A DNA stretch of 64,000 nt from assembly GCF_963921235.1 (NCBI RefSeq), contig NC_086097.1, forward strand, positions 142,106,001 through 142,170,000, written 5' to 3'. Positions within the stretch are counted from its first letter, which is position 1; each line of letters starts with the position of its first letter. The notes beneath the pieces are model-generated. The model saw only the letters and a program-made list of their open reading frames with translations, ran no database searches and was not told the origin of the DNA. This DNA is from Mobula hypostoma (taxonomy: Eukaryota). A program made the position numbers and the translations under genes. Of this stretch, positions 5,993 through 63,149 are shown piece by piece.

Positions 5993-6128
5993 CCAACTTT
6001 CAAATCCCTTACTCACTCTTCCTTCAGTTAGTCCTGACGAAGGGTCTCGGCCTGAAACGTTGACTGCACCTCTTCCTACAGATGCTGCCTGGCCTGCTGC
6101 GTTCACCAGCAACTTTGATGTGTGTTGT
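5993..6128 (+). mobile_element. Penelope-like element 3'-terminal fragment (136 bp) inserted in the Tc1 transposase
   Basis: Near-identical to the PLE end at 47237-47365. 12-bp TSD ctctgttcatgt at 5981-5992 and 6129-6140. Confidence 0.9.
6029..6066 (+). ncRNA. Minimal type-I hammerhead ribozyme motif (PLE-associated)
   Basis: tagtc-CTGACGA-a-gggtctcggcct-GAAA-cg-TT-gactg: helix I tagtc/gactg, intact core boxes, helix III reduced to palindromic ACGU. Confidence 0.7.
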
Positions 6129-17791: not shown

Positions 17792-17863
17792 CTCAGCAGG
17801 CTTTTCTTTACACAGCACAAGCAATGCAGTCTGTGTGTTTGCCTGACTGATTATGTCTGAGAA

Positions 17864-18962: not shown

Positions 18963-19482
18963 TGTGCTTTACAAGTACAGCTTCTCCTCAGCACTGATTT
19001 ATTCTGCCATTGTTCCAAAGCCATGCAATTTCAGTTCAGGCTAGTATCAATAGTATCAAGCAAGGCACATCAATATGACAACAATTTCCTCAGTCTTTCT
19101 CACTGTACTGTTCCACCCCAGTTCCCTCTTGGAAACTCTTTAACAATAGAATCAAGGTTATTCCAACATCAATCATAGAGACGCAGTACAAAGGCTATGC
19201 TTGTGTACGTCCACATTCAAAGGTCAATCTCCTAGTCACTGTCAACCCAATCAAGGAGGCATATGAAACAATGGGCCTTACATTTAACATGCACAAAAAA
19301 CAAAGATCGTCTACCAACCTGCTCTTGTTATACACCATCACTTCATTTAAAGGAAGGAGAAACAAGGTTATTATTTCAGCTCAAGAACCTGAAACATTGA
19401 CTCTGTTTTGTTCCCACAGATGCAGCTTGATCTGTTGAGATTCCTCATCATTTCAGCAGATATTTGATTTTCAATCCTTGTA

Positions 19483-21063
19483 CAGGTGTCCGCTTTTCGA
19501 ACGTTCGCTTTACAAACCCTCACTGTTACGAAAGACCCACATTAGTACCCTGTTTTCGCTTTCAGAAGGTGTTTTCACTGTTACGAAAAAAAGCAGCGCA
19601 TGATAAAAAATCAGCGCACAATAAAAGGCAGCGCGCGCCCCGAGCAGCCGCTCTCCCCCAGGATTCGGAACGGCATTTCAGCGGCATTGCTTAAACACAT
19701 GCCTGTGAGCAGCCATTAGCAAGATGAGTTCTATGGTATCGGAAAAGCCTAAAAGAGCTCGTAAGGGTGTTACACTTAGCGTAAAACTAGACATAATTAA
19801 GCGTTTCGATCATGGTGAACGAAGTAAGGACAAAGTGTGTGGCTTGTGGAAGCTGACGAACATGATGTTGAAGCGGTTTTGGCATCCCATGACCAAGATC
19901 TGATAGATGAAGAGCTGATGCAATTGGAAGAAAAAAGGATAACAATTGAAACCGAATGAGTAATGATAAATTACGACTTTAATTTTGAAAGGGTACGTTG
20001 GTTTAGGGGATATTTGCAGGATGGTTTGAGTCCTTACAAAGAACTGTGCAATAGAAAAACACGCGAGGCTCAGCAGACAAGCAAGCCTTCCACATCAGCC
20101 ACAGCAGACTACGAACCTCGACCTTCGACATCGAGGCGGGCAAAGATAGAAGATGTGCTGCCTACCCTAATGGAAACAGACGATGACGAGATGACACCCC
20201 AGTGTCCCACCACCCCAACCCCCAGGCCACGACAGATACCGATTCGCGGAGAATGCAGCAGTAGCCGGGAGGCACACAGCACATCTTTAAGAAAAAAGCC
20301 GAAATAAACATGCTAATTAATTAGGCGCCGCCTGACACATAATTGTCGGCCCAAATCAGAGATGACGCAATCGGCACTGATCTGGGCCGAAAATTACGTG
20401 CCCGGTGGCACCTAATTAATTAGCATGTTTGTTTCGGTTTTTTTCTTAAAAGATGTCCTGTGTGCCTCCCGGCTACCGCTGGACCCCTGCATGCTTTGCG
20501 GCAATGTATCAGTCGGCGGCCTGGAGGGCGGGGGCCACTACACCACCCCAGCCTGTGACGACTCAGCCTAACACACCATCAGTGTGCTTGGCGCTGAACC
20601 AATTCCAGTAAGTGATACTACACTGTACATACATTATTTCTACTTTATATAGGCTGTGTATTTTTACATGTTATTTGGTATGATTTGGCAGCTTCACAGC
20701 TTAAAGGTTACTGGAGAGCACTTGCGCCGTGTTTTTGCCAACAGCGCTTGCGTGAGATTTTCTGCCGACGGCGCTTGCGTGAGATTTTCGCTACGGAGAA
20801 CAGTGCAGTAATGATTGTGAAAAAGTTTTTCTACTTTATATAGGCTGTGTATTTATCATATCATTCCTGCTTTTACTATATGTTACTGTTATTTTAGGTT
20901 TTATGTGTTATTTGGCACTATTTGCTAGGTTATTTTTGGGTCTGCGAACGCTCACAAAATTTTCCCATATAAATAAATGGTAATTGCTTCTTCGCTTTAC
21001 GACATTTCGGCTTACGAACTGTTTCATAGGAACGCTCTACCTTTGGATGGTGGGGGAAACCTG
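19483..21063 (+). mobile_element. Tigger/pogo-like internally deleted DNA transposon
   Basis: TA-CAGG...CCTG-TA ends with imperfect TIRs. N-terminal CENP-B/psq-like HTH remnant from ATG 19724 (MSSMVSEKPKRARKGVTLSVKLDIIKRFDHGERSKD), fused to an acidic C-terminal remnant (DVEAVLASHDQDLIDEELMQLEE). No DDD domain. Confidence 0.85.
20256..20481. repeat. Long inverted repeat: arms of about 104 bp, 17-nt loop
   Basis: 20256-20359 is reverse-complementary to 20377-20481 with about 10 mismatches by eye. Confidence 0.95.
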
Positions 21064-22859: not shown

Positions 22860-23040
22860 CCCCCAAGCCTTTTTATTCTGGCATCTTTCCCCTTCCTTCT
22901 CAGTCCAGAAGAAGGGTCTCAGTCTGAAACATCAACTGTTTATTCTTTTCCATTGATACTTTTTGACCTTCTGAGTTCCTCTAGCATTTTCTGTGTGTCG
23001 TTTTGGATTTCCAGCATGTGCAGAGTTTCTCATGTTTCTC
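22860..23040 (+). mobile_element. Old Penelope-like 3' fragment with a decayed hammerhead motif
   Basis: cagtc-CAGAAGA-agggtctcagtct-GAAA-catcaactg followed by the typical PLE end (...ggatttccagcatgtgcagag). Confidence 0.7.
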
Positions 23041-25333: not shown

Positions 25334-26255
25334 GTCTCCAACCATCTCCAACAGGATGGGATCCCATCACCAAGCACATCTCCCCCCCACCCCCCGACTT
25401 TCTGTTTTCCGCAGGGATCATTCCCTACACGACTCCTTTGTCCATTCATCCCTCCCCACTGATTTTCCTCCTGGCACTTATCCTTGCAAGCAGAACATGT
25501 ACTACACCTGCCCCTACACCTCCTCCCTCAGGGGCCTAAACGGTCCTTCCAGGTGAGGTGACACTTCACCTGTGAGTCTGTTGAGGTCATATATTGCATC
25601 CAGTGCTCCTGGTGTGGGCTCCTGATATGACCCACCGGTATATCGGTGAGAACCGACGTAGATTGGGAGACCACTTTGCCAAGCACCTACACTCCACCCG
25701 ACAGAAAAAGCAGGATCTCCCAGTGGCCATCCATTTTAATTCCACTTCCCATTCCGATATGTCCATCCATGGTCTCCTCCAATGTCGTGATGAGGCCTCA
25801 CTTAGGTTGGAGGAACAACACCTTGTATTCCGTTCGGGTAGCCTCCAGACTGATGGCATGAACATTGATTTCTCAAACTTCTGGTAATTCCCCTCCCCCC
25901 TCCTTCATCATTTCCTATTCTCTTTCCCCCCCCTCACCTTATCTCTTTGCCCCCCTTACTCCTCCCCTCTCTTCTTCTTCCATTGTCTTCTGTCTCTTTC
26001 ACCAATCAACTTCCCAGCTCTTCACTTCATCCCTCCCCCTTCAGGTTTCATCTACCACCTTCTGTTTCTTTCTCCACTCCCCCACCTTTTAAATCTACTC
26101 ATCAGCTTTTTTTCTCCAGTCCTACCGAAGGGTTTCAGCCCGAAACATTGACTATACTCTTTTTCATAGATGCTGCCTGGCCTGCTGAGATCCTCCAGCA
26201 TTTTGTGTGTTACTCAGATTTCCAGCATCCGCAGATTTTCTCGTTTGTGATTATA
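25334..26255 (+). mobile_element. Penelope-like element 3' fragment (GIY-YIG endonuclease remnant and terminal region)
   Basis: YIGENRRRLGDHFAKHL...PVAIHFN...RLEEQHLVFRSGSLQTDGMNIDF. 10-bp TSD ttactttgaa at 25324-33 and 26256-65. Hammerhead core mutated (CTACCGA). Confidence 0.9.
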
Positions 26256-26280: not shown

Positions 26281-27153
26281 GAGATGAGTTAGGGTAATTG
26301 GCAGAATGGTGCAAGTACAACAACTTGAGTCTCAATGTGGACAAGACTAAAGAAGATTGTGGACTTCAGGAAGATGTATACTGACTACTTTTCAGTGAAC
26401 ATAAACCGCTCCTCTGTGGAGAGAGTTAGGAGCACCAAGTTTCTGGGAGTGCAAATAATGGACGATCTCACCTGATCCCTCAACACCACCTCTTAAGTCA
26501 AGAGCAGTGCCTCCACTTCCTGAAGAGAATGAAGCGAGTGAGCCTCCCTCCCCCCACCTCTCCTATTCTAACCAACTGCATCACTGTCAGGTATGGAAAT
26601 TGCAAGTCATCTGACCAAAAGATCCTACAAACAATTGAGAGGACTGCTGAGAGGATCATTGGGGTCTCCCATCCAAGATATTTACCAGGAGTGCTATATA
26701 CACAGGACACTTAGCATTGTGAATGATCCCTCCCATCTGTCCAACAATCACTCTGACTCCCACCTTCAAACAGCAGGTACTGTAGCATTAGGACAAGGAC
26801 TGTTCGAATGGAAAACAGTTTCTTCCCATGGGCCATGAGACAACCTGCTACCATCCAGGTCTGATCACCTATGAAGCACCAAGTTGTGTCAGACAAGCAC
26901 CTTACTATCTCAGCCCGAAACATCGACTGTACCTCTTCCTAGAGATGCTGCCTAGCCTGTTGCGTTCACCAGCAACTTTGACGTGTGTTGCTTGAATTTT
27001 CAGCATCTGCAGAATTCCTCGTGTTTACCTTATTTTTGTTAATTTTTTTGTGGTAACATTATTTTAAGTGTTGTGTGTGAGTTATGTGTACTGTGTTATG
27101 TACCGGGGGATGTTGCATCGTTTGCCAGTATACATTTATAATAAACTTGAATT
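26281..27153 (+). mobile_element. Rex1/Babar-type LINE 3' fragment containing a short PLE 3' tip (about 26908-27027)
   Basis: Similar to 37740-38670 (agcaccaagtttctgggagtg; LQTIERTAERIIGVS). The insert matches the PLE end cccgaaacatcgactgtacctcttcctagagatgctg. Confidence 0.8.
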
Positions 27154-40421: not shown

Positions 40422-40752
40422 CTGTAAATGTGAACTTAACATCAAAAAGTAAGCAACTGCTCTCAAAATCACCTTTAAACCATTCAAATGCCGTGCTGTA
40501 AAGATACCCACTATACACAGGTTGCTAATTTCATCCAATATAATCCTTGCGGTTAGTAAGCCATGGATTAATTACAAATTCAAGGAAAATAGAGCATGCA
40601 AAATAATGGGTGCTTTAGTAAACCAATGTAAGGTATCATGCTGTGCCATTAACAGTCAGCTGAAATCCCGATGACAAGATATTGTAAGTTGAAGCTGGGG
40701 AGAGGAATGGGGTAAGAGGAAGATAGAGGGGAAAAGTGCTCTTGAAACACAC

Positions 40753-43296: not shown

Positions 43297-44786
43297 CTAC
43301 ACAAGGGAAAAATAGCAGCTAAATATAACATTATCATCATCAACTCAAAATACAGATGTATTCAACGGTTCTTTTGCTCTCCTATTCCGCATACCTCCAT
43401 ATTTATGACATCGGTGTTAAAAAAGCAACACCTGGTATAATCATTTAAAAGCACAGAAGGAAGAATCACAGATTGCAACAGCATTAAACCATGCCAGAAA
43501 GGCCCAAGTTCAATCAATACCATATAATCAATTAATAATTTCATCATGATGGCTTTATGGCCCAATTATTAAGCTCAATTGTGAGCTGAGATTTTGGTAA
43601 ACTAGTGTTTGTGCAGCTAATCTCTGGATTCCTGCAGAAGATAGAGTTGTGTACTACTGTAATAGCTCCTCACCTTTAAATGCAGTATTTCTCTATGATT
43701 TTCAATGATGAAAAGTACTTTTACTTAAGATGTAATGCAACAGCAATATTTTTGTTGGATGAATGGACAAAGATAAATGTGTCTAGTTTGCCCAGGGTTG
43801 AATAATCTTCTTGCCCTCTCCCAATGTAACTTGTATATAAAAGCAACAATAAATCTAAACACATTGGTTAGGAGCTCAATTATGACACAAACTACTCTAG
43901 TTGACCCAATTAGAATCTGCAATTTGTGTTGTATTCCAGCTATTATATTAGCAAAATTGGTACAACACTCATTCAGATATCACTGCCTTCACACAGCACA
44001 ATCCAATGGATTTTTATTTGAACAAAGTAAATGCCTTCTATTCCTGAAGCAGAAGAATCTGTCTGCAATAGAAAATCAAGGGCATGGACAAATAACCAGC
44101 GTCTTTATTACTTTTGCCATTTCTTATAACTCTGCTCAGTCCTGTGCTCAACTGTGTAATTATGTGTCTCGATTTTCAGAGACATGTGAACCACCAACTT
44201 AAAGATAAGCTCAAATCCCACCAAAACAGATAGGTAAATTTAAACCCTGAAATAAATGACAATTAAACATAAAATTAACAAAAAAAAAGGTGCTTGTAAT
44301 GAAATTGTCAGATTGCTTCTGATGACTTGTGGGGACAGATCTGAGTTATTAGCTTGTCTGACCTATATGCAATTCCAAATTAAGTCCCCTCTAAAATGTT
44401 GTGGCAAATCAATCAGTTCAAGGACATAAAAAAGAATGATGCCCACCCACAGTCAGGGAATGAAAATAGAAAGCATAAAATAAATTTATCATTAGATAGT
44501 GAGTTACTCAGAAATTAAACAAATATATGAAGTAAAGGAGCCAACAAATAGTCCACAGCTCCCTAAAAGTGGCTAAATGGGTTGGATAGGGTGGTAATGG
44601 AAGCATATGGCATGCTTGCCTTTATTAATCAAGGACTGAGTTCAAGAGTTGGGAAGTTAGTGCTGCACCTTTATACAACTCCAATTAGGTCACATCTGGA
44701 GGCTTTGGAGGGGGCACAGACAAGGGTTACCAATATGCTGCCTAGATCAGAGGACATTTGCTGTAAGGAGAGGCTGGACAAACATG

Positions 44787-45405: not shown

Positions 45406-45850
45406 CATCTGCTGTTTGTGATGAATTTAAATGGTCTGGGTAAAAATGTAGTTGGGTGGGTTAGTAAGTTTGCAGATGATACGAAGACAGGAGGTGTTGT
45501 GGACAGCATAGATGACTGGCAAATGGAATTTAACCCGGCCAAATGTGAAATGTTTGACCTACCAAGGTGTAACAGAGAGAGACAGCAAGACTCTTAACAG
45601 TGTTGATGGACAGAGGCAACTTTGTGTCCAAGTTCATAATTCACTGAAGGTGGCTACACAGGTTGATAGGGTGGTTAAGCTCGCCTTTATTAGCTGAGGC
45701 AATGAATTCAAAAGTCAGTAAGTTATGTTCCAGCTTTATAAAACTGTAGTTAGGCCGCATTTGGAGTATTACATACAGTTCTGGTTGCCCCATTATAGGA
45801 AGGATTTCAAAGCTTTGGAGAGGGCACAAAAGAGGTTTACCAAGATATTG

Positions 45851-47365
45851 TTCCAAGCCTATTCTGGTATCTGTCCCCCACTTTTCCTTCGCTACATTGA
45901 CGACTGCATTGGCACTGCTTCCTGAACAACATGCTGAGTTTGTTGACTTCAATAACTTTGCCTCCAACTTTCACCCTGCGCTCAAGTTTACCTGGTCCAT
46001 TTCCGACACCTCCCTCCCCTTTCTAGATCATTCTGTCTCTATCTCTGGAGACAGCTTATCTACTGATGTCTACTATAAGCCTACTGACTCTCACAGCCAT
46101 CTGGACTATTCCTCTTCTCACCCTGTCTCTTGCAAAAATACCATCCCCTTCTCGCAATTCCTCCGTCTCCGCCGCATCTGCTCTCAGGATGAGGCTTTTC
46201 ATTCCAGGACGAGGGAGATGTCCTCCTTTTTTTTTTAAAGCAAGGGGCTTCCCTTCCTCCACCATCAACTCTGCTCTCAAACGCATCTCCTCCATTTCAC
46301 ACATCTGCTCTCACTCCATCCTCCCGCCACCCCACTAGGAATAGGGTTCCCCTTGTCCTCACCTACCACCCGACCAGTCTCCAGGTCCAACATATTGTTC
46401 TCTGTAACTTCCGCCACCTCCAACGGGATCCCACCACTAAGCACATCTTTCCCTCCCCCCCTCTCTCTCTCTGCTTTCCGCAGGGATCGCTCCCTACGCG
46501 ACTCCCTTGTCCATTCGTCCCCCCCCATCCCTCCCCACCAATCTCCCACCTGGCACTTATCCTTGTAAGCAGAACAAGTTCTACACATGCCCTTACACTT
46601 CCTCCCTTACCACCATTCAGGGCCCCACACCGTCCTTCCAGGTGAGGCAACACTTCACCTGTGAGTCGGCTGGGGTGATATACTGCATCCGGTGCTCCTG
46701 ATGTGGCCTTCTATATATTGGTGAGACCCGACGCAGACTGGGAGATCGTTTCGCTGAACACCTACGCTCTGTCCATCAGCGAAAGTAGGATCTCCCAGTG
46801 GCCACACATTTTAATTCCACATCCCATTCCCATTCTGATATGTCTATCCACGGCCTCCTCTACTGTAAAGATGAAGCCACACTCAGGTTGGAGGAACAAC
46901 ACCTTATATGCCGTCTGGGTAGCCTCCAACCTGATGGCATGAACATTGACTTCTCAAACTTCCACTAATGCCCCACCTCCCCCTTGTACCCCATCCGTTA
47001 TTTATTTATATACACACATTCTTTCTCTCTCTCTCTCCTTTTTCTCCATCTGTCCCTCTCACTGTACCCCTTGCCCATCTTCTGGGTTTTTCCCCCTCTC
47101 CCCCTTTTCTTTCTCCCTGGGCCTCATGTCCCATGATCCTCTCATATCCCTTTTGCCAATCACCTGTCCAGCTCTAGGTTCCATCCCTCCCCCTCCTGTC
47201 TTCTCCTGTCATTTTGGATCTCCCCCTCCCCCTCCCACTTTCAAATCTCTTACTAGCTCTTCCTTCAGTTAGTCCTGACGAAGGGTCTCGGCTCGAAACA
47301 TCGACTGTACCTCTTCCTAGAGATGCTGCCTGGCCTGCTGCGTTCACCAGCAATTTTGATGTTTG
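45851..47365 (+). mobile_element. Penelope-like element, 5'-truncated (RT C-terminus, GIY-YIG, terminal region)
   Basis: FLRYIDDCIG, FHPALKFTWSIS, VYYKPTDSH, VIYCIRCS, YIGETRRRLG. 14-bp TSD ttaccaagatattg at 45837-50 and 47366-79. Confidence 0.95.
47270..47307 (+). ncRNA. Minimal hammerhead motif with helix III mutated (GAAACAUC)
   Basis: tagtc-CTGACGA-agggtctcggctc-GAAA-ca-TC-gactg. Confidence 0.55.
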
Positions 47366-49513
47366 TTACCAAGATATTGCCTGGATTAGAGGGCATGTAC
47401 TATAACGAGAGTTTGAACAGACTCTCATGGCTGGGGGGAGATGTGATAGAGGTTTATAAGACTATGAGAGGCATAGATAGAGAGACAGTCTCTTTTCCAC
47501 AGAGTTGAGAAGTCTAATATCAGAGGGCATGGAAATAAGGTGAGTGGGGTTAAGATTTTTTTTTAAAACACAAGAATGATGAGTACCTGGAATGTGGTGC
47601 CTAGGGTGCTCGTAGAGGCAGATACATATGGGACTTTTAAGAGATGTTTAGATAGTGTCATGAATGTGAGGAAAATGGAAGGATACGGACATTGTGCAGG
47701 CAGAAGGAATCAGTTTAATTGGCTATTAACTGGTTCGGTACAGCATTGTGAGCTGAAGACCCCGTTCCTGTGTTGTACTACTGTAGTTCTATGTTCTCCT
47801 TTCCTCAGTATTCTGTTAATACAAAACTAATAAAGTAGGATGTAATACAAATCATATTAAGATTAAGGTTTTGAGCTTTTAAAAAATATTTTCAAACAGT
47901 GGGGCAATCATTTAAGTAGGTCACATATGAAATTGAAAATGAATGAGAGTCACTCCTCTTCTACGCTCACCAGATGCATTATCGCCAATGGCTACAAAGT
48001 GCACATGATATTGCTCAGTGACTTTTACTCCCTTACATTGATGCACCATAACTGAATTAATGTTCTGAAACTACTGTTCATCCAGTTAAACTTGTATTGT
48101 GTAAACTTCTATCCTTCCACTATCATTCTTGGAGTATGTTACACCAGCTCACTGCACCCTCCTTGCACTCTCTAGTATGTTCTTGTTATTATCTGAAAGG
48201 GAAAGTTCTGATGAAGGTCATCCTACATACAAGCAACTTTCCAGTTCCCTCTGTATGCAGCCATGTTTTCTTATATCTAACCTACGCACATTATCCAAAT
48301 GCTCTACCTGTTCTCATCAGATGTTCATACTTGCACATTAGCTGAAGTAGCTTGTTTGTCTCCCTTCTCTGGCAAGGAAACACGCCTCCCTGGCCTTGAA
48401 ACTAACTAGCTCAGGAAATACAGAGGAACAACCCCATCTGCATAGCTTAATACTGTACCATATGGCACATTTGCCAACTGAACTAATTTTGAATATACTC
48501 TGGAAAAATAACCTTCTATTTTATGACTGCAAGGCACTTTTAAACTCAAATTCAGGTCAACCCTTAATTCTGTTGCAGTTTTATTTTTTTTTTAAAAGCC
48601 AAAGGGAAAGTGTCAAGGCAACTCTTGATGAGCTGTACAGCAACATGAACAGTAATGTTCAGAGAAGGAATGCCAGTAAGGCCACGTAATTCCCTGAAGA
48701 AACTGAAGGAAATAGTCACCTTTTGCACATGTGGAATTGCATTAAGACGAGACAGACAAGGTGGAAAGCTTAATGGAAATCAGCAAAGGCACTGAATTGT
48801 CACAAAAATCTGACAGCTTCGGTAGTCAATTTTTGATGATAAACCAGACCCAAACTTTAGTGTTACAATTTGTCTTGGTGGGATTTGAATCTGTATCCTG
48901 TGTTATTGAATTACTGTCATGGCAATTAATATATCAAAACATAATAGCAAAAGTAATTCCCAAAAGCAAAATTAGGAAAAAAGAACAAAGTAAGTAAAAC
49001 TGACATGCACTGTTTTAATGCCCCCCACAGACAATTTTCCCTAATCTTTGTGCAGCACCCCTACACAACTTTGGGCTCAGGAGCAAGCAGGCTAATATCT
49101 TATTATATCTCAATTTCTTCCAAATGTCAACCTTTATTTTTGAAGGCAAATATTCCTTGCTAGATTCTAGGGGATTTAATGCACTCATAATGAAAGCAAA
49201 TAGAAACCTTGAATAAAATCAAATATTGCAATCACCCCGAAGTCCAGAATGCATTTTAAGGTTAATCATCACAGCAAGGACATGATTGATAATTCCTCTC
49301 CACCCAGCCATCCCTCCCCCACCCCTACATTCTTCCACAGGGAAGCAGAGATCAACTGAAACTTTAACTGCTATCCAAGCTGGTTACACTCAACTCAGTA
49401 TTGACATGGGATTGAACCAACGCCATCCTGATATGTATGACTCAGAATCATAATGGGCAGATGTTCTTAACCAAACATTTAAGTAATATCAAATGTTAAA
49501 TTTTATTCCCTAC

Positions 49514-52344: not shown

Positions 52345-52452
52345 CTCTGGTTTTAAGAGTAGAATCAAGAAGTTCTTCTTCCTGAGAAGCTATTTCCTCA
52401 ATGGAAAGTTGAACTGATTCTTGGTTTCCCTTTTCTTCAAATGTTGGTTCTT
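52345..52452 (-). CDS. MAP4: MAP4 exon (108 nt, phase 1-1): (E)EPTFEEKGNQESVQLSIEEIASQEEELLDSTLKTR
   Basis: Acceptor tttcttcctcctcaacatcttgtAG|AA, donor AGA G|GTATAA. Acidic open frame. Confidence 0.78.
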
Positions 52453-52652
52453 CTACAAGATGTTGAGGAGGAAGAAATATGCTTCATTAAAACTTGGGTC
52501 ACAGTATTATTATTTAAGTGAGACAGCTTATTTATGTAAAATTGATTTTCACCTCAGAGTGAGATACTTTTATAATACAGCCCTAGCATTTTTTTTAACT
52601 CAACACAGATGTAGGACACCAAGGTGAGGAAGACACAATGAACTGTGTAGAA

Positions 52653-53044
52653 GCAACACTTCACAACATGCTGGAGGAACTCAGCAGGTCGAGCTGCATC
52701 CATGGAAACGATCAGTCAACGTTTCAGGCCAGAACCCTTCATCAGGACTGAAGAGGGAAGGGGCAGAGGCCCTATAAATAAGGTGGGGGGAGGGTGGGAA
52801 AGAGAAGGCTGGTAGGTTCCAGGTGAAAAACCAGTAAGGGGAAAGATAAAGGGGTGGGAGAAGGGAAGCAGGGAGGTGATAGGCAGGAAAGGTGAAGAAG
52901 GAATAGGGGAAAACACAAGAGGCGGAACCATGAGGGAGGTGATACGCAACTGGGGGAGGGGGCAGAGTGTAATAGGGATAGGGGAAGGGGGGGGAGGGAA
53001 TTACCATAAGTTGGAGAATTCTATGTTCATACCAAGGGGCTGGA
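52653..53044 (-). mobile_element. Penelope-like 3' fragment
   Basis: Starts at the ORF end (..QPLGMNIEFSNLW*). 13-bp TSD gaactgtgtagaa at 52640-52 and 53045-57. Confidence 0.88.
52712..52751 (-). ncRNA. Minimal type-I hammerhead ribozyme motif, sense to MAP4
   Basis: tcagtc-CTGATGA-a-gggttctggcct-GAAA-cg-TT-gactga, with a perfect 6-bp helix I. Confidence 0.72.
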
Positions 53045-53914
53045 GAACTGTGTAGAAAATGCTAGCTCAGTCACATCTTAGAAAGTATGAATCAGACTGT
53101 GCTGATCATTTGCACAGAACTGTCAACTTGCCACAACAGCTCATCAGTATAGACCCAACATCTGTATCTATGCATTACAACAGACAAACTAGGACTGTGC
53201 CAGATGTCAGATATAAGACATAAGACAACTGACTTCTTGTTCTGTTGTTGGATTGACTTCCAAGTCCGGGGAGCTCAATTGTGGTGAGCCAAAGAATAAT
53301 AGTCTTTAGACCAGTACAAGGTTAACATATACAGAGTTAACATATACAGAGTGACCTCATTAATTTGAACGGTATCATCACCCTTTTCTGAAGTAGTAAT
53401 TTCAGGTAGTTGTTTCTGAATGCATTTTAAGTAAAATTTTCCAGTTTTTAAATTATGTTTTTAAAATGTTTCACCTATTTTTAAGCACGCACAATTGACA
53501 TACCAGAGCCATTTAAAAATGTTAAAAAAGCCTTTTGCAGCATAATCTATCAAGAGGTCATTAGTATGATCCAGAAATAGAGCAGGATCCACCATGAGAG
53601 GCTTAGGTGCCACTTGGTATATATCATTCTGCTTCATGAGACAATCACAGCACTGAAATCTCAAGCTCAATTTAACTTGCAAGGTCACAAAAGGCTAGTG
53701 TTGCCATGGGAATTATGTGGTAAGGTTAGCAGGAGGGGTTGGATCAAGCAATTCCAACCCAAGATAAAGGTCTTGGAGGGAGTACTGGACAGATTTCCTA
53801 TTAGAAGGCTGGAAAAGCAAAGATAATTTGCCTTAGAATAGAGAAAGTCATGGACAGCTACAATAATGAAACTCCAAATAATATGAGATCTACACCAATC
53901 AGACAGCAGAAAGT

Positions 53915-54650
53915 GTTCAGATTTATTATTACTGACATATAGTATGTCATACATTTTGTTGTTTTGTGGTAGCAGTACATTGCAAAACATAAAAAAATTA
54001 CTGTAAGTTAAAATGAACAAATGAATAGGTAGATAGTGCAGAAGAGGAGTAGGGAGATGGTGTTCATGGACTTTCAGAAATCTGATTGTGAGAGGGGCAT
54101 TCCTGGATAGTGAGGATCCTTAGTGATGGATGCCACCTTCTTTAAGACACCACCCTTTGAAGATGTGCCTATGATGGAGCCGGCTGAGTCTACAACTCTC
54201 TGTAGCCTCTTTCAATCTTCTGCATTAGAGCCACCATACCAGGCAGTGATGCAAAAAGTTGGAATGCTCTCCATCATATATCTGCAGAAATATGCTAGAG
54301 TCTTTAGTGGCATATCAGATCTCCTCAAACTCTTAATGGAATATAACTGTTGGCATGCCTTTTTCATGATTTCATCAGTGTTAGATCAAAAATAGATACA
54401 GCTAGATGTAGATGCCCAGGAACTCGAAGCTGTTCACCATTTTTGTTGCTGACCCTCAATGTAGACTGGTGTGTGTTCTCCTGACTTCCTCTTCCTTGTC
54501 CGCAATCAATTCCTTAGCCTTGCTGAAGTTGAGGAAGAAGCTGCTGTTGTGACACCACTCAACCAGCTGATCTCTCTCCAGAATGCGCCCTTGTCGCCAT
54601 TTGAAATTCTGCCAACAGTAGTGCCATCTGCAAACTTGTAGATGACATTT
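53915..54650 (-). mobile_element. Rex1/Babar-type LINE 3' fragment, degenerate
   Basis: DQLVEWCHNSSFFLNFSKAKELI remnant; reverse complement of a YKFADGTT-like motif at about 54620-54640. Confidence 0.75.
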
Positions 54651-54869
54651 GAGCAATTTGAAAAAAGTACAAGAACGAGTAGCATCTAGGGTAATGAAAC
54701 ATCATTATTGCTGTATTGCTTTTGCGGAGAATCAGGACAAACTCAGAATGGTCAAATTATTCCATTCAGTGCTGTTGCCATTATTATGCATCTATTTGTT
54801 TATCATTAGTGGGAATAGCAGAAGAACATGCAAAGATGTTGCAATGGCTTAGCACTTCTTTCATCACTC

Positions 54870-55330
54870 ATACAGGGATTCTGTGTTCATTGTGAATGGA
54901 CCCAAAGTTCATGATAACATGCTGAATTATGCTCTTGCAATTTAAACGGTTTGAGCCAGAGATCTCAGGTGTTGCTCATCCAGGATGCTATGAACATATC
55001 CCTGATTCTTTTCCTTGATCTGCTTGGTAATCTCCACCATGACAAGGCTTGGAATAGAGTGTCTATTTTGGGAGTCTAGTATCAGGTACATGAATGTAGC
55101 AGTCAACAGAAATGAACCAGCACCTCAATACTGGGGCTGTAGCCTGGGAGAGGCTCTGCATTGATACACCTGTTCAAAGTAAATGGGAAGCAGAGATAAC
55201 TGCTGCCTAGTTGACCATGAGTTTTATGACAGGCCAAAGGTCTTGACCATCAAATATCTGATCCTCAATTGAACAAGGCTGCAATGATACACTGAAAGTG
55301 ATGGGGAATCTCATCATCGATATTTGCCTT
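54870..55330 (-). mobile_element. Possible old RTE-clade LINE fragment
   Basis: Minus-strand remnant resembling the RTE ORF2 C-terminus (..RLPK*TLFQALSW..). Heavily decayed. Confidence 0.35.
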
Positions 55331-55389
55331 TCCCCAAAGTTGGCTCCCAAGACAGAATCATACTCTCATATGGCACAGAAATTTCTCCC

Positions 55390-55640
55390 AAATTCTACCA
55401 CTGCACTTAAATACACACTAGGGGCAATTTATAATATTCAATTAACTCACCAATTCACCATACTTTGGTATGTGTGAAGAACTGGAACACCTAGAAGAAA
55501 CACAGACAGTGACAAGGAAGGTGGTGCAAACTCCATACAGTCAACACTGGGAATGGGATCAAACATGGGCTTGGAGCTGTGAGGTGTCAACTTTTCCAGC
55601 TGCATTACTGTGTCACCAATGCGGGAAATGGTCAATGCTT
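55390..55640 (-). mobile_element. V-SINE-like element, degenerate
   Basis: Minus strand gtatggagtttgcaccaccttccttgtcactgtctgtgtttcttctaggtgttccagttcttcacacataccaaag. Confidence 0.65.
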
Positions 55641-55804
55641 CCTGAGGCCTCACAGCTAGATAAAATAGGTTGATAAAGAACCTATGCCTTACAGACATTG
55701 AATAAAAAACCCATCCTCTTATATTTCAGTAAATGATTTGGCAAAATGTGGGAGCTCAGCTTCAAACAGAAGCACTATTTGCATAGTGCAGGTCAACAAG
55801 ATAC

Positions 55805-56247
55805 AGCTGTGTCGAACATGTCCCTACCTTAGAACGACCTAGGCTTTACCCATAGCCCTCTATTTTTCCAAGCTCCATGTAGCTATCCAGGAGTCTCTTA
55901 AAAGACCCTATCATTTCCGCCTCTGCCGCCGGCAGCCCATTCCACGCACTCACCACTCTCTACGTAAAAAACTCACCCGTAACATCTCCTCTGTACCTAC
56001 TTCCAAGCACCTTAACACTATGCCCTCTCACACTAGCCAATTCAGCCCTGGGGAAAAGCCTCTGACTATCCACACGATCAATGCCTCTCTCATCATCTTG
56101 TACACCTCTATCAGGTCACCTCTCATCCTCTGTCGCTCCAAGGAGAAAAGGCCAAGTTCACTCAACCTATTCTCATAAGGCATGCTCCCCAATCCAGGCA
56201 ACATCCTTTTAAATCTCCTCTGCACCCTTTCTATGGTTTCCATGTCC
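55805..56247 (-). mobile_element. Younger CR1 3' fragment adjoining an older CR1
   Basis: ERVQRRFKRMLPGLGSMPYENRLSELGLFSLERQRMRGDLIEVYKMMR. Confidence 0.9.
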
Positions 56248-57780
56248 GATACATTTTGATACAATGTGTATCCTTGGACATTAAGTGCCCATCTATAATC
56301 TTCTTTCAGCCATGATTCAGTGATGCCTACCTCATCATTATTGCCAATCTGTAATTGTGCTACAAAGTTCATCAACTTTATTCCATATGCTGCGCGCATT
56401 CAAATATAAAACCTTTAGTCCTGTACTCACACTTTTCAACTTTGTCCACCTTTTACACTGGAATTCATCCTACTGATTGCAATTTTGCCCTATCATCAGC
56501 CTCTCCTTGCTAGGACTCTCACCACATTTTGCCCCTGTAAACCAACTACCTCATCTTCAGCACTATTACTCCAGTTCCCATCCCCTTGCCAAATTAATTT
56601 AGATCCATCTGACCAACTCTAGCAAACCCGCCCACAAGGATACTGGTTCCCCCCTCGGGTTCAGCTGTAATTCATCCCTTTTGTACAGGTCATGCCTCCC
56701 CCAGAAGAGATCCTAATGATCCATAAATCTGAACCCCTGCCCCCTGCCCTAGTTCCTCACCCACACATTCCTACTCTTACTCTCAAAGGCACAAGGCACA
56801 GGCCAACAATTTAGAGATTACTACCCTGGAGTTTCTCAGCTTTCTACCTAACTCTCTAAAATCTCTCTTCAGGACCTCCTCACCTTGTCTATCTATGTCA
56901 CTGGTGCCAATCTGTACCAAGACTTCTGGCTGCTCACCCTCACCCTTGAGGATGTCATGGACCAGATCTGAAACATCTTTGATCCTAACACCAGGGAAGT
57001 AGCATACCATCTGGGTGTCTATTGCAGCCAAAGAACTTTGTCTCTGTCCCACTGACTAAATGATTTCCTATCAACACTACAACTCAGTGCCAGAGACCTA
57101 GTCATTGTGGCTCCCCCCGGTAGGTCGTTCCCCTCCATGACACTGAAGTTGTCTACTTATTATTGAGAGGAATGATCACAGGTGTACTCCGCACTGGCTG
57201 TGCATTTTCCCTCCTTCTCCTACCAGTCTCCCAGTTACCTGAATCCTGCAACCTCATGGTAACTACCTCCCTGTAGCTCCTGTCTATCACCTCCATGATC
57301 ATTCTCCCATTCGAGTTGAAGGTCATTTAGCTGCAGTTCCAGCTCTTTAATACAGTACATTCTCTCAGGAGCTGCAACTTGGTGCACTGGTGCAAATGTG
57401 TTTATCTGGGAAACTTCCCACATCTCACACACAGTACAAAACACTGCCCCGGAGCCATTCTCACTAAACGACTGTAACCTCAACAGATAAAGAATAAAGA
57501 AATAAGAACAGAGTGAGAGAGTAATTTACAAGATACTTTACCTCACCCAATCCTGATAAGCCAAAAGACTGGTACTCTCCAAAACAATGGCCACTCCAAG
57601 AATGGCTGCTTCATTTGCATTTGAGTTACTTTTATTGATCCTTTCTAATGAATCGCTCTTGCTGATTGGTCGCTTCTCAACTCAAAGTAACTGCTGTGAA
57701 ACTCTGCCTTTAAAGATCTTGATTGCATTCTTGGTTAAAAAGTAGCCCTTTTTACGCACCCCTGATGTGGACTGTCCAAC
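56248..57780 (-). mobile_element. CR1 5' portion: 5' UTR, ORF1 (zinc finger and esterase-like) and ORF2 N-terminus, degenerate
   Basis: AVFCTVCEMWEV, VCYFPGVRIKDVSD...QPEVLVQIGTSDI, DEVGITESWLKE. Confidence 0.82.
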
Positions 57781-57908
57781 TCAAAAAAATCATGAACATA
57801 CACTCAGTGAATATATATTATTAAAAACTAAGGGATTCAAGGGAAATGTCCATAATGCAGTAAAACGGCACTGAACAAGAAGATCTGGCACAGCCTTGAT
57901 AAACCATA

Positions 57909-58225
57909 GGCAGCATGGTGGCATAGCAGTTAGCACAATTGCTTTACAATGCCACTAATTGATGTTTGATTCCCACTACTGTCCTTATGGAGTTTGCAAG
58001 TTCTCCCATGACCATACACGTTTCCTTTAGGTGCTCCAGTTTCCTCCCACATTCCAAAGACATACTGTTAGGATTAGTAAGTTGTGGACCTGCTATATTG
58101 ACATTGGAAACATGGTGAGACTCATGGGCCGTCCCAACATAATCCTCAGATTGTTTTGGTTGTTGATGCAAAATGACACATTTCACTGTAAGTTTCGATG
58201 TACATGTGACAAATAAAGATAATCT
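57909..58225 (+). mobile_element. tRNA-derived V-SINE with a different 3' tail
   Basis: Head ggcagcatggtggcatagcagttagc...gtttgattccc, V-domain ggtgctccagtttcctcccacattccaaagac, tail gtacatgtgacaaataaagataatct. Confidence 0.75.
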
Positions 58226-58669
58226 CTTGAAAAATCTCTGAATTGCAGAGCAGGTTCATAAGGCCAAATGGGCCTTGCTCCTGTTTCTTCGACTTGCCGT
58301 TAACCAGCTAATCTTCAATCTGCGCTAACATGCAAGTTCCAGCAGTATTGTATTTGGCAATACTGTCTGATGAAGCAACTTATAAATGCGTTCTGGAATT
58401 AGTTGATTTACAAATGCAGTAAAATCAATCAATTCCTCCACATTGATGACATGTCAGTTCAAATTCCAATTAATTTTGTGTGTCAGTCATATCTGACTAA
58501 CGTTCTAAAAGAACTCTATATTTTGTGCTTGGATATAAAGGCAAATATTTGCTTTGCTTTCTGAGCAAAGTTGTTACCACTGCTTCTTTAATGGCCTGTC
58601 CCACTTAAAATATTGTATAGCAAATATTATGTAATTTTCAGAAGTGCAGGTTATCTCTGACTACCCAAT

Positions 58670-59525
58670 TAGTCAAAGTAAATTTATTATCAAGTATGTA
58701 TGCAGTATATTACCGTATACTACTGAGATTCATTTTCTTATGAACATTCACAGTACAAAGAAACAGAACTGTATCAATGAAAAAAAAGAGAAAGAACCAA
58801 CGTGTAAAAGACTGCAAACAGTGCAATATAAATAAATAGTAAACAACATGGAGAACATGAGTTGTAGATTTCTTGAAAGTGGGCCCATTGGTTGTAGGAT
58901 CAGTTCAGTGTTGAGTTAAGTGAAGTTATCTATGCTGGTTCAGAAGTCTGATGGTTAAAGGGTAATGACTGTTCCTGAACCTCGTGGAGCGGCACTTAAG
59001 GCTCCAGCAATTCCTTCCCGATGGCAGCATTGAGTAGAGATCATGGCACGGATATGGGGATCCTGATGATGGATGCTGCTTTCATGTGGTATTGTTTCTA
59101 ATAGTTGTGCTTAATGATGAGGAAGGCTTTTTCTGTGATAGACAAGGCTATATTGCTACTTTTTGTAGGCTCTTCCGTTCTTGGCCATTGGTGGTTCCAT
59201 ACCAGGCCATGATACAACCAGACAGGATACTCTCCACTATGCATCAATAGAAGTTTGTCAAAGTTTTAGATGACATGCCGAATCTGTGCAAACTTCCAAG
59301 AAAGTAGAGGTCCTGTCATGCCTTTTTTGTAATAGCACCTACATACATGCTGGTCCCAGGGCAGATCCTCTGATATGATAATGCTAAGGAATATAAAGCT
59401 ACTGTCCTTGATCAGCGCTGCCTCATGAACCTCCATTTCCTCCTCTTGTAGTCAATATTCTGCTCTTTGGTTTTGCTGACACTGAGTGAGAGTTTCTGTG
59501 GCACCATTCAGTCAGATTTTCAATC
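58670..59525 (-). mobile_element. Rex1/Babar-type LINE 3' fragment, degenerate
   Basis: Minus-strand tail ...tacttgataataaatttactttgac, similar to 25290-25333. ORF-end blocks resemble 30795-31545. Confidence 0.72.
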
Positions 59526-59653
59526 TTCTTCCTATAGATCTATATTAGAATTGACTGAAAACCACTATCGATATTTGAAAATAATCTTCGGCTTTATGCA
59601 GGTAGGAACCAAGGCAATTCAAGATGAATCTACATTCTTGTCACAATACATAC

Positions 59654-59785
59654 CTGTAACCTCAGTCAGAGAGTTTGGAAGTATTAGCTCTGCACAAGAT
59701 GTTGCTGAGCCTTTAATTTCGTGTGCAGGAGACTGCACAGGTTCAAAGTTCAATAACTCCTCTGCACCATGTTCTTCTATAGTAC
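59654..59785 (-). CDS. MAP4: MAP4 exon (132 nt, phase 1-1): (G)TIEEHGAEELLNFEPVQSPAHEIKGSATSCAELILPNSLTEVT
   Basis: Acceptor tttttgctgaattttgcAG|GT, donor ACA G|GTATGT. Open frame. Confidence 0.78.
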
Positions 59786-59943
59786 CTGCAAAATTCAGCA
59801 AAAATTTACTACACACACCAGAAAGACACATTTAGCAACTCTATCTTCTCAGACACAAGTGGTCTTCAAATAATCTCAATTTGAGCTGTGCCTTTGGTTT
59901 CATACTGCATAACAATATAATATCAGGATTTTAAACTGATTGG

Positions 59944-62142
59944 AGTAAAACACATCAAAAATGCTGGCGAACGCAGCAAGCCAGGCAGCATCTATAGGAA
60001 GAGGTACAGTCAACGTTTCGGGCCGAGACCCTTCGTCAGGACTAACTGTAAGAAGAGATAGTAAGAGATTTGAATATGGGAGGGGGAGGGGGAGATCCAA
60101 AATGATAGGAGAAGACAGGAGGGGGAGGGATGGAGCTAAGAGCTGGAAAGTTGATTGGCAAAAGGGATACGAGGCTGGAGAAGGGAGAGGATCATGGGAT
60201 GGGAGGCCTAGCAAGAAAGAAAGGGGGAGGAGGGGGGAAACCCAGAGGATGGCAAAGGGTTATAGTGAGAGGGACAGGGGGAGAAAAGATAGAAAAAAGG
60301 AGAAAAGAAAAAAATATATATTAATAATAAATAAATAAGGGATGGGGTACGAAGGGGAGGTGGGGCATTAACGGAAGTTAGAGAAGTCAATGTTCATGAC
60401 ATCAGGTTGGAGGCTACCCAGACGGAATATAAGGTGTTGTTCCTCCAACCTGAGTGTGGCTTCATCTTGACAGTAGAGGAGGCCATGGATTGACATATCA
60501 GAATGGGAATGGGATGAGGAATTAAAATGTGTGGCCACTGGGAGATCCTGCTTTCTCTGGCGGACAGAGCGTAGGTGTTCAGCGAAATGGTCTCCCAGCC
60601 TGCGTCGGGTCTCACCAATATATAGAAGGCCGCATCGGGAGCACGGACGCAGTATATCACCCCAGCCAACTCGCAGGTAAAGTGTTGCCTCACCTGGAAG
60701 GACTGTCTGGGGCCCTGAATGGTGGTGAGGGAGGAAGTGTAAGGGCATGTGTAGCACTTGTTCTACTTACAAGGATAAGTGCCAGGAAGTAAATCGGTGG
60801 GACGGGATGGCGGGGGACGAATGGATAAGGGAGTCGCGTAGGGAGCAATCCCTGTGGAAAGCAGAGAGAGGGGGGAAGGGAAAGATGTGCTCAGTAGTGG
60901 GATCCCGTTGGAGGTGGTGGAAATGACGGAAAATTACATGTTGGACCCGGAGGCTGGTGGGGTGACAGGCGAGGACAAGGGGAACCCTATTCCCAGTGGG
61001 GTGGCGGGAGGATGGGGTGAGAGCAGATGTGCGTGAAATGAGAGAGATGCATTTGAGAGCAGAGTTCATGGTGGAGGAAGTGTAGCCCCTTTCTTTAAAA
61101 AAGACATCTCCTTCGTCCTGGAATGAAAGACTCATCCTGAGAGCAGATGCAGTGCAGACGAAAGAATTGCGAGAAGGGGATGGCATTTTTGCAAGAGACA
61201 GGGTGGGAAGAGGAATAGTCCAGGTAGCTGTGAGAGTCCGTAGGCTTATAGTAGACATCAGTAGATAAGCTGTCTCCAGAGATAGAGACAGAAAGATCAA
61301 GAAAGGGGAGGGAGGTGTCAGAAATGGACCAGGTAAACTTGAGGGCAGGGTGAAAGTTGGAGGCAAAGTTAATAAAGTCAACGAGTTCTGCATGCGTGCA
61401 GGAAGCAGCGCCAATACAGTCGTCGATGTAGCGAAGGAAAAGTGGGGGACAGATACCAGTATAGGCTTGGAGCATGGATTGTTCCACAAAGCCAACAAAA
61501 AGGCAGGCATAGCTAGGACCCATACGGGTGCCCATGGCTACACCTTTAGTTTGGAGGAAGTGGGAGGAGCCAAAGGAGAAATTATTAAGTGTAAGGACTA
61601 ATTCTGCTAGACGGAGGAGAGTGGTGGTAGAAGGGAACTGGTTAGGCCTGGAATCCAAAAAGAAGCGGAGAGTGGGGAATGGAGGTATATAGGGACTGGA
61701 CATCCATGGTGAAAATAAAGCGGTGGGGGCCAGGGAACTTAAAATCATTGAAATAATTCAGAGTGTGAAAAGTGTCATGGACATAGGTGGGAAGGGATTG
61801 AACAAGGGGGGATAAAACAGTGTCGAGGTTTGCAGAAATGAGTTCAGTGGGGCAGGAGCAAGCTGAGACAATGGGTCTATCTGAACAGGCAGGTTTGTGG
61901 ATCTTGGGTAGGAGGTAGAAACGGGAAGTGCAGAGTGTGGAAACTATAAAGGTTGGTAGCAGTGGATGGGAGATCCCCTAAGCTGATAAAGTTGGTGATG
62001 GTGTTGGAGACAATGGCCTGGTGCTTCTTAGTGGGGTCATGATCAAGGGGTGAATAAGAGGAGGTATCCGCGAGTTGTTGCTGTGCCTCGGCAAGGTAGA
62101 GGGCAGTATGCTGTGCCTCGCCAAGGTAGAGGTCAGTATATC
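59944..62142 (-). mobile_element. Penelope-like element, 5'-truncated, about 2.2 kb (most of RT, GIY-YIG, terminal region)
   Basis: QTKGVAMGTRMGPSYA, FLRYIDDCIG, CSRCGLLYIGETRRRLGDHFAEHL; frameshifted. 14-bp TSD tttaaactgattgg at 59930-43 and 62143-56. Confidence 0.95.
60007..60044 (-). ncRNA. Minimal type-I hammerhead ribozyme motif, sense to MAP4
   Basis: tagtc-CTGACGA-a-gggt-ctcg-gccc-GAAA-cg-TT-gactg. Core and helix II fully intact. Confidence 0.75.
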
Positions 62143-63149
62143 TTTAAACTGATTGGCTTAAGTTTAAATACTAATGAATTTCTGACATTAACATCAAGCA
62201 GAATCACTACATGCTTTACTGATGCTTTTTCAATTTTCCATTAAGATTCTCATTGTTTTCTGTAACTAGCTAATATGCACACAGTTATTGCAAACATTTC
62301 ATTGTTCCCATTCTTCTGCACTTCAAATCAGCCTTAATCACCCATCTCCTCAAAACTTTCACATTTTATCTGTCTGCTCTTGCAGATTATCTTCAATCAC
62401 CAACTTTGCTTTGATCTTAAAATCCATCCCCCTCCCTGTGTGGAGTCTGTATGTTCTTCTGTGACTGCCTCAATTTTCTCCACGTGCTCTGCTTTCTTCC
62501 CATATTCCAATGATATGCAAGTTAATGATAATTGGCCTCTACTGGGCCTTCATAAAAACACACATCATATTCTGCTCTGAAAGAGTCTGAATCCTGCAAA
62601 CTGGACATACCATTTTCACCTTGCTTGGAGTCTGATCTTCTTCAGGAGGATCATTTACTTAATTCCAACTTGAGAGCACTGCCAGCACTAAACCTGCCCC
62701 AGCTAATTTTTACTGAAACGTTCATGCATAATTAACATTTTGTTATTATGTTAATAAGTTAACTCTAATCTTCTGCACCATCACCACTTTCCTATACCAT
62801 TTCCATTTCCTTTCACTCTCATAAGGCCCAAAATATCTCCTCTCTTGAATAAACTCAAACTTTGAGCCTCTAATACCCTCTAGATAGAATGTCTAAAGGT
62901 TCCTTGTCCTCTGGGTGAAGTATTTTTTTTCTCAACTCCTTCCTGAATTGGTTACCCCTTTATTTTAAAATTTTGAGCCTGTTCAGAAAACCCCATCAGG
63001 GAAAATGACATCATTGAGCTTATGCTGTTAGCAAGATCAGCTTTCCTTTAAAAAGAACAAGAGAATATGGGATCAGTTTGCATAATCAAGTCAGCATAGC
63101 TGCTTAATTAGTCATCGTAGCACAATCTACCAAGAATCAATCTGGCAAA

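Follow-up and report, generated by a model that had tools for sequence, protein, structure and literature searches.

Two minimal type I hammerhead motifs, referred to here as A and B, are located on the minus strand of a 64-kb window of the Mobula hypostoma genome (the window being the whole stretch of DNA that was analysed), in the sense orientation of a gene for a MAP4-like protein (Table 1). The exons of the host gene match MAP4-like proteins with tubulin-binding repeats (PF00418), and all 979 of 979 aligned residues are identical to P0023, annotated as Mobula hypostoma MAP4-like isoform X1. The exons were placed by homology, because ab initio exon finders each overlooked real exons. Exons X1 and X2 align with successive segments of MAP4-like proteins annotated in rays and skates, which shows that the acceptors proposed in the first-pass annotation, at 59785 and 52452, are real; as it had also proposed, the motifs lie upstream of these exons, A by 222 nt and B by 260 nt from the respective acceptor. 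The two motifs do share a pre-mRNA, but they occupy separate introns, 7.3 kb apart with exon X1 between them.

Counted over RefSeq models, which are not inclusion levels, exon X1 is present in 10 of the 10 listed Mobula isoforms, and exon X2 is missing from some of those listed for rays, skates and a shark (5/14 listed isoforms in Rhinoraja, 5/13 in Amblyraja, 1/6 in Narcine, and 2/7 in Heptranchias). The isoform table omits P0045 (47 aa) and P0094 (partial) and covers 15 of the 20 members of cluster 6, and the isoform calls leave out Scyliorhinus torazame for X2 and Narcine for X1, for which the scores were too low.

Table 1. Features of the MAP4 window, with positions counted from the first nucleotide of the window
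Feature	Position	Strand	Description
Element A	59944..62142	(-)	5′-truncated Penelope-like element, 2.2 kb; frameshifted reverse transcriptase (RT) ~62100-61125, linker and GIY-YIG endonuclease to ~60390, then pyrimidine-rich region, motif A, ~63-nt tail
Element A target-site duplication, left copy	62143..62156	(-)	14 bp; 14-mer found twice in window
Element A target-site duplication, right copy	59930..59943	(-)	14 bp
Motif A	60007..60044	(-)	Minimal type I hammerhead; helix I 5′ arm 60044-60040; CUGACGA 60039-60033, then one extra A; helix II GGG/CCC with 6-nt loop; GAAA; ACGU 60016-60013; N17 = U at 60012; helix I 3′ arm 60011-60007; helix I of 5 bp including one G-U; predicted cut 60012/60011
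MAP4 exon X1	59785..59654	(-)	132 nt, phase 1-1; between motifs A and B
Element B	52653..53044	(-)	5′-truncated Penelope-like element, 392 nt, of a subfamily other than A's; ORF end only, 3′ region, motif B, tail
Element B target-site duplication, left copy	53045..53057	(-)	13 bp; 13-mer found twice in window
Element B target-site duplication, right copy	52640..52652	(-)	13 bp
Motif B	52712..52751	(-)	Minimal type I hammerhead; helix I 52751-52746 / 52717-52712 (6 bp); CUGAUGA 52745-52739; helix II GGG/CCU; ACGU; N17 = U at 52718; G-U at 10.1-11.1; predicted cut 52718/52717
MAP4 exon X2	52452..52345	(-)	108 nt, phase 1-1; cassette exon
Antisense twin of element A	45849..47369	(+)	88% identity over 1546 nt; own 14-bp duplication; motif at 47275 with C17, but helix III = ACAU
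Antisense family tail	26908..26992	(+)	Starts within motif, without CUGANGA
Antisense family copy	25341..26215	(+)	Broken core CUACCGA
Antisense family tail	22870..22993	(+)	Broken core CAGAAGA
Antisense family tail	19388..19451	(+)	Starts within motif, without CUGANGA
Antisense family tail	5999..6126	(+)	Complete core; motif match 6034-6060; internal control

Motifs A and B are the 3′ ends of two independent Penelope-like insertions, each of which is a 5′-truncated retrotransposed copy with its own target-site duplication; no head-to-tail retrozyme units were found at either site. Relatives of element A bear PF00078, PF26215 and partly PF01541, three full-length relatives are colinear with 62098-60389 (E down to 1.5e-114), and the Atlas features on the element include GIY-YIG clusters at 0.94. 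A direct Pfam scan of element A gave a weak RVT_1 match (E 0.015) and no match to GIY-YIG. An RT followed by a C-terminal GIY-YIG endonuclease in one ORF is thus seen in element A as frameshifted remains. Both motifs occupy the terminal-repeat location of Penelope-like elements (PLEs), at the 3′ ends of copies from an RT + GIY-YIG family, which bears out their earlier assignment to the PLE minimal hammerheads.

Both motifs contain the CUGANGA and GAAA boxes and U16.1-H17, arranged in type I order; 6 of 38 motif positions distinguish B from A. Helix II has 3 bp, and the extra nucleotide between 9 and 10.1 is A in 6/6 full family copies. At 15.2-16.2, motifs A and B share the palindrome ACGU with the 6034 copy, and the remaining five of the eight tails have ACAU. 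Helix III of A and B is limited to this ACGU, so that the stable helix III for monomer cleavage is absent. The G10.1-C11.1 pair is kept in A; in B it is replaced by G-U, or by A-U in a shifted register that consumes the extra nucleotide. The hammerhead parts reported in the first-pass annotation (core, helices I and II, and ACGU) are therefore present in both motifs, and its description of two intact copies holds for the complete cores, but not for position 17, which is U in both, nor for the 10.1-11.1 pair of B.

The U17 is likely a product of CpG decay, as had been suggested for a GUU site derived from GUC, because four copies of the same subfamily span this site and two of them, A's 88%-identical twin included, have C there. 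GUU itself is an allowed NUH cleavage site (PMC3138052). Motif A was not found to be conserved beyond its flanks in the comparison with the twin, which has low power: 3/38 positions differ in the motif and 148/1467 elsewhere (Fisher p = 1.0), and a CpG-corrected expectation gives 5.7 motif differences (P(≤3) = 0.18).

This window was the basis for counting copy number, orientation bias and near-acceptor enrichment; it holds eight family tails, six antisense and two sense (p = 0.29, not significant). The core is complete in both sense copies and in 1/4 full antisense copies, with no significant difference by strand (Fisher p = 0.40 for the six full copies and 0.11 for all eight). The 6034 copy is not mentioned in the first-pass annotation; its core is as complete as those of A and B, and it differs from motif A at only 1 of 38 positions, which indicates that a complete core needs no host selection.

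The distance to an acceptor is at most 260 nt for both sense copies (2/2) and for none of the six antisense copies; 3.1-3.5% of all intronic positions of the window fall in that zone (post hoc p ~0.001). This nearness counts against a purely passive role of the motifs. A role of the pyrimidine-rich tails as distant branch-point tracts was rejected on the 13 and 12 AG dinucleotides between motif and acceptor, and the creation of exons X1 and X2 by the insertions was rejected on the presence of both exons in skates and a shark.

The motifs belong to a known class, the minimal hammerheads (min-HHRs) in the pseudo-LTRs of metazoan PLEs (Cervera and De la Pena 2014, PMC4209133, cited here from partial text). 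A and B resemble this class in several respects: they are of type I order, their helix I falls within 4-6 bp, an extra nucleotide separates 9 from 10.1, a palindrome stands in for helix III, and they lie in the terminal repeat of an element with RT + GIY-YIG. In addition, copies of the class are mostly single and truncated (~4,000 in coelacanth and ~9,000 in Xenopus), as are those of the ray. In contrast to the Schistosoma min-HHRs, with a helix II of 7-8 bp, the ray copies have 3 bp, and U17 in both copies and the missing G10.1-C11.1 of B also depart from the published examples. The host here is a ray, and cartilaginous fish were not found in the excerpted text of PMC4209133. The Anolis Poseidon element PAc, as far as described in excerpts of PMC11167929, is similarly a vertebrate endonuclease PLE with a terminal-repeat hammerhead and insertions ending shortly past it; PAc is active and encodes a protein, whereas the ray copies are frameshifted and truncated. 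The type I hammerheads of non-LTR retrozymes (bioRxiv 10.64898/2026.07.22.740005, in part) likewise stem from PLE terminal repeats and cleave as dimers, but the retrozymes form head-to-tail units of 51-972 bp with adjacent partners, whereas A and B are solitary, of different subfamilies and 7.3 kb apart. Sense self-cleaving motifs in host introns are known from the RECK, CTCL and DTNB hammerheads of amniotes (PMC6155905, PMC6765202) and the HDV-like ribozyme of CPEB3 (PMC10919898); according to the excerpts of these sources they are conserved across species, unlike A and B, which are decayed repeats inside an element and show no excess conservation.

We consider it highly probable that A and B are standard PLE minimal hammerheads ending two truncated insertions in neighbouring MAP4 introns, where they are likely inert and spliced out uncut. 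Retrotransposition would account for the arrival of each copy: because it starts copying at the 3′ end of the element, the hammerhead is retained every time. The CpG sites of each copy, including C17, would later have decayed. A lone motif is predicted to be unable to close helix III, its core tending to pair with its own helix III strand; with natural flanks, the dimer-competent monomer fold is predicted at ~2e-3 for A and 2e-4 to 3e-5 for B. The A:B heterodimer is fully complementary (7+5 bp in helix I and 4 bp in helix III), but in nearest-neighbour models, which omit tertiary and Mg2+ stabilisation and were run without an active-dimer positive control, the active dimer lies +5.8 to +11.6 kcal/mol (Turner 2004) or +1.9 to +8.4 kcal/mol (Turner 1999) above the free ensembles, with a best-case occupancy of 1.1e-6 at a tether concentration of 25 μM. 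A dimer across 7.3 kb is thus predicted to be almost unpopulated. Moreover, the antisense twin, which is the complement of A and B within the MAP4 pre-mRNA, is predicted to bind either motif far more strongly (-165 kcal/mol for A and -60 for B) and would outcompete the dimer once it is transcribed. In the excerpted text of PMC4209133, monomers of the class did not cleave and dimers or trimers cleaved little; for the anole hammerhead, the excerpts of PMC11167929 report no cleavage without the element's protein and no RNA-seq ends at the site. Co-transcriptional splicing would probably cope with a rare, slow cut in an intron, and slow hammerhead cuts within introns left splicing unblocked in work cited in PMC2995048. 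Activity of A and B in the MAP4 pre-mRNA is, on these models, improbable. As found, the motifs are of small import, adding two copies of an already described transposon-borne motif to a genome full of them.

Any effect on MAP4 could instead arise from double-stranded RNA rather than catalysis, through the 1.5-kb inverted repeat that element A and its twin form around X1, X2 and X4, with A-to-I editing, back-splicing or skipping as possible outcomes. This reading, which is compatible with inert passengers, appears unlikely. In its favour, 12.6 kb separates the two oppositely oriented copies, their predicted duplex is very stable, and inverted repeats in introns are known to promote the formation of circular RNA. 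Against it, all 10 listed Mobula isoforms contain X1 and X4, and internal repeats account for about 21% of the window, so that such inverted pairs are commonplace.

Occasional slow, unregulated cleavage, helped by a family partner in trans or by the protein of an active PLE, would impose a small load on the host rather than serve a function, and we regard it as distinctly unlikely. The anole hammerhead does cleave once the element's protein is added (PMC11167929, in part), and the family is dense, with its eight tails per 64 kb. Selection against sense copies would predict the excess of antisense tails, and Xenopus introns are depleted of tandem retrozymes, according to the available text of bioRxiv 10.64898/2026.07.22.740005; the excess in the window is nevertheless not significant, and a shortage of sense copies has other causes as well. 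U17 is present in both copies, and they end 85-88 nt past the start of helix II, whereas template activity in the anole element needed 172 nt counted from that point (PMC11167929, in part; an analogy from a different family).

The first-pass annotation had gone further and proposed that A and B could form a double hammerhead in cis. In such a model, by swapping helix I strands and pairing ACGU with ACGU over 7.3 kb, they would cut both sites and tune exon inclusion or the level of MAP4. Both motifs are sense, core-complete and mutually complementary, both are near acceptors, and they would coexist, being transcribed 2-7 min apart when splicing is reported to take 5-10 min. Furthermore, fast intronic ribozymes can affect the host mRNA, as with that of CPEB3, whose cut half-life is 2-3 min (excerpts of PMC10919898), and as with the engineered T3H48 in intron 3 of Actg1 (PMC12069562). 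The proposal is very improbable all the same. An occupancy of 10% at 0.24-25 μM would need 11-20 kcal/mol of extra stabilisation (Turner 2004), the antisense twin competes, the class is slow even in tandem (PMC4209133, in part), and U17 in both copies and the G-U of B also speak against it. No sign of an effect is seen in the listed isoforms, since X1 is retained in all 10 from Mobula and X2 is skipped in distant species too, and motif A is no better conserved than the dead element around it. A switch on MAP4 is thus not supported.

It is just as doubtful that an active PLE protein or a host chaperone lets A and B, paired as a double hammerhead, excise the 7.3-kb piece holding X1. Such a piece would have 5′-OH and cyclic-phosphate ends ligatable to a circle, X1 would be lost in frame, thousands of sense intronic copies would become an inducible genome-wide cutter of host pre-mRNAs, and the copies close to acceptors would be the ones that matter. 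If relic hammerheads could pair across kilobases and cut, every large shark or ray gene would hold latent cleavage sites, and the transition from transposon ribozyme to domesticated intronic ribozyme would be observable. This question fits the genome-wide scale better than the MAP4 locus, where A and B are among the weaker candidates because both carry U17.

That the motifs are chance look-alikes is scarcely credible: CTGANGA alone is near its chance level in the window (51 vs 42.6), folding z-scores are weak (-0.1 to -1.4), and Rfam gave no hammerhead family in the whole window (E≤5) or in two 141-nt stretches (E≤10), but the full pattern CTGANGA-N8..30-GAAACGT has 3 matches against 0.01 expected (100 shuffles), and the motifs match the published min-HHR layout, including the extra nucleotide and the palindrome, and close an RT + GIY-YIG element on its 3′ side. 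The exact motif pattern had 0 matches in metagenome contigs, and look-alike stretches numbered 0 among the other genomes compared. An Rfam match to mir-7131 at 20289-20449 was set aside, as it scores under the gathering threshold and sits on an inverted repeat.

Both hammerhead motifs recorded in the first-pass annotation, A and B, are borne out at their positions on the minus strand, and each reads as a helix I arm, CUGANGA, an extra A, a 3-bp helix II, GAAA, ACGU, U17, and a helix I arm. The pattern CTGANGA-N8..30-GAAACGT gives three matches in the window, compared to 0.01 expected from 100 shuffles, and these are A, B, and an antisense copy at 6034; CTGANGA by itself occurs at about chance level (51 vs 42.6 in the window). 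The Rfam check for a hammerhead listed no family for the whole window or either local stretch, presumably because the truncated motifs are missed by the models. Motif B lacks G10.1-C11.1, which is described in PMC4209133 among the highly conserved hammerhead features. Across the eight tails, the 3′ ends of the same family, position 17 is C in three (the antisense twin of element A included) and U in five, a split that fits the earlier guess of CpG decay at the cleavage site. Both sense copies have U at this cleavage nucleotide, at which cleavage is slower, roughly tenfold or more. GUU is a permitted cleavage site, and GUC and GUA are cleaved fastest, according to PMC3138052. In motif A and the 6034 copy, where N7 is C, base pairing of the core's GACG with N17 and the helix III strand produces a self-blocking monomer fold, which a C17 version would be expected to form as well.

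The motifs end two 5′-truncated Penelope-like (PLE) insertions, elements A and B, whose flanking duplication words each occur exactly twice in the window. Frameshifted remains of a reverse transcriptase (RT) and GIY-YIG domain lie inside element A. The RT piece matches 272 of 1249 candidate proteins, and the matches listed carry PF26215, in many cases with PF00078 and in some with PF01541. Three full-length relatives align colinearly with element A over 62098-60389, and its C-terminal piece shows a likeness of 0.94 to GIY-YIG clusters in language-model features; a direct Pfam scan is weak. This layout is shared with the endonuclease-bearing PLEs described in PMC4209133. A 3′-end profile (E<1e-8) finds the eight tails in the window, six antisense and two sense to MAP4 (p = 0.29 for the sense share). 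A and B, 77% identical over 97 nt, belong to different subfamilies. The motif class and its PLE carrier are already published; the sighting is correct, and the thing itself is ordinary. Titles from the literature searches, with subscription journals thinly covered, include none on hammerheads at the MAP4 locus or on such motifs in rays. The supplements to PMC4209133 and to a 2026 retrozyme preprint (bioRxiv 10.64898/2026.07.22.740005), with one chondrichthyan in its sample, may contain this ray family.

Positions of the motifs, their carriers, and neighbouring features in the window
Feature	Position	Strand	Remark
Motif A	60007-60044	-	N7 = C
Motif B	52712-52751	-	
Element A	62142-59944	-	2.2 kb, motif A at 3′ end, 14-bp flanking duplication
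Element A 5′ end	62138-62081	-	opens with near-exact tandem duplication, ~30 nt
Element B	53044-52653	-	392 nt, ends in motif B, 13-bp flanking duplication
Twin of element A	45849-47369	+	1.5-kb inverted repeat with 59945-61474 (-), 88% identical, 12.6 kb apart
6034 copy	6029-6066	+	antisense, N7 = C
Two tails	26908-26992, 19388-19451	+	start within hammerhead motif, in or just past helix II loop
Exon X1	59785-59654	-	acceptor at 59785
Exon X2	52452-52345	-	acceptor at 52452
Large MAP4 ORF	40652-43318	-	alternative exon acceptors at 43296 and 43237, both in Mobula isoform models
634-codon ORF	15968-17872	-	matches MAP4-like P0001 (E 7e-47)
Dead MAP4 exon	~50900-50780	-	runs into TAG, no GT donor
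LINE-like element	~7167-10131	+	large, decayed, RT (RVT_1 E 4e-14), antisense to MAP4
MITE-like element	20286-20450		165 nt, two 74-nt inverted arms, 88% complementary, sub-threshold mir-7131 match

The host gene encodes a MAP4-like protein on the minus strand. Its large ORF has 18 PF00418-bearing relatives among 7998 candidates scored, many of them named MAP4-like, and P0023, annotated as isoform X1 of the Mobula hypostoma MAP4-like protein, is matched by five window exons without a difference over 979/979 aligned residues. Since X1 and X2 are consecutive in MAP4-like proteins, the two acceptors assigned earlier are real and the motifs lie in separate introns with X1 between them; the measured motif-to-acceptor distances are 222 and 260 nt. 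The 634-codon ORF, absent from every elasmobranch isoform tabulated, is likely a second, alternative large MAP4 exon.

We consider it likely that the motifs are inert passengers, spliced out uncut. For minimal PLE hammerheads, PMC4209133 describes uncleaved monomers and low-level cleavage of dimers and trimers, and a review (PMC6765202) gives very low rates, dimers included. An anole PLE hammerhead, according to PMC11167929, cleaves only with the element's own protein, is not required for in vitro insertion, and leaves no RNA-seq ends. An effect on the host is possible when an intronic ribozyme is fast, as in CPEB3 (PMC10919898) and the engineered T3H48 (PMC12069562), but slower intronic hammerhead cuts did not prevent splicing in Dye 2006 and Fong 2009 (both as cited in PMC2995048). 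No selection on the sense copies was found, at low power, when A was compared with antisense copies in the window: a single one of its 38 motif positions is different in the 6034 copy, whose antisense orientation rules out ribozyme action in MAP4 pre-mRNA, and the differences from the twin number 3/38 within the motif and 148/1467 elsewhere (p = 1.0). After CpG correction, 5.7 motif differences from the twin would be expected (P(≤3) = 0.18). The proximity of both sense copies to acceptors counts against the passenger view. Each of the two has an acceptor no more than 260 nt away, as none of the six antisense copies does, and this zone covers 3.1-3.5% of window intron positions, giving p ~0.001 for 2 of 2 in a post hoc test. 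As a rough figure, 275 windows of this genome with two sense copies each would yield 0.3-0.5 such cases.

The double hammerhead in cis proposed in the first-pass annotation holds on paper, where the motifs are complementary (the A:B heterodimer pairs 7 and 5 bp in helix I and 4 bp in helix III), but is energetically disfavoured in nearest-neighbour models. Transcription between the two sites takes 2-7 min, a time covered by the 5-10 min that PMC2995048 gives for splicing, so dimerisation would be possible on paper. Relative to the free ensembles, the energy of the active dimer is higher by 5.8 to 11.6 kcal/mol (Turner 2004) or 1.9 to 8.4 kcal/mol (Turner 1999), in calculations that omit tertiary and Mg2+ effects and have no positive control. 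With the effective concentration of 0.1-25 μM estimated for the 7.3-kb tether, these energies give a best-case occupancy of ~1e-6; 10% occupancy under Turner 2004 would need at least 11 kcal/mol of additional stabilisation. In monomer A with its natural flanks, the core GACG pairs with CGUU and ~0.2% of the ensemble is dimer-competent, the share for monomer B being 0.02% or less. The twin, 5.4 kb past B in the same transcript, is the complement of both motifs, with predicted binding of -165 kcal/mol for A and -60 kcal/mol for B. The inverted repeat formed by A and its twin brackets X1, X2, and X4, a geometry suited to RNA editing or back-splicing.

The suggested effect on exon inclusion finds no support in RefSeq gene models listed within 90%-identity clusters, whose counts are not inclusion rates: X1, the exon that a double cut would remove, is kept in 10/10 listed Mobula isoforms, so its skipping is not seen. 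X2 is skipped in 1/5 isoforms of M. hypostoma, 1/5 of M. birostris, 1/7 of Hemitrygon, 5/14 of Rhinoraja, 1/6 of Narcine, 5/13 of Amblyraja, and 2/7 of Heptranchias, and in 0/2 of Hypanus, 0/7 of Pristis, and 0/7 of Leucoraja. This skipping across several genera indicates that X2 is likely an old cassette exon that does not need a ribozyme to be skipped. The counterpart of the dead MAP4 exon occurs in 0/19 listed Mobula, Hypanus, and Hemitrygon isoforms and is used as a cassette exon in Pristis, Narcine, skates, and sharks.
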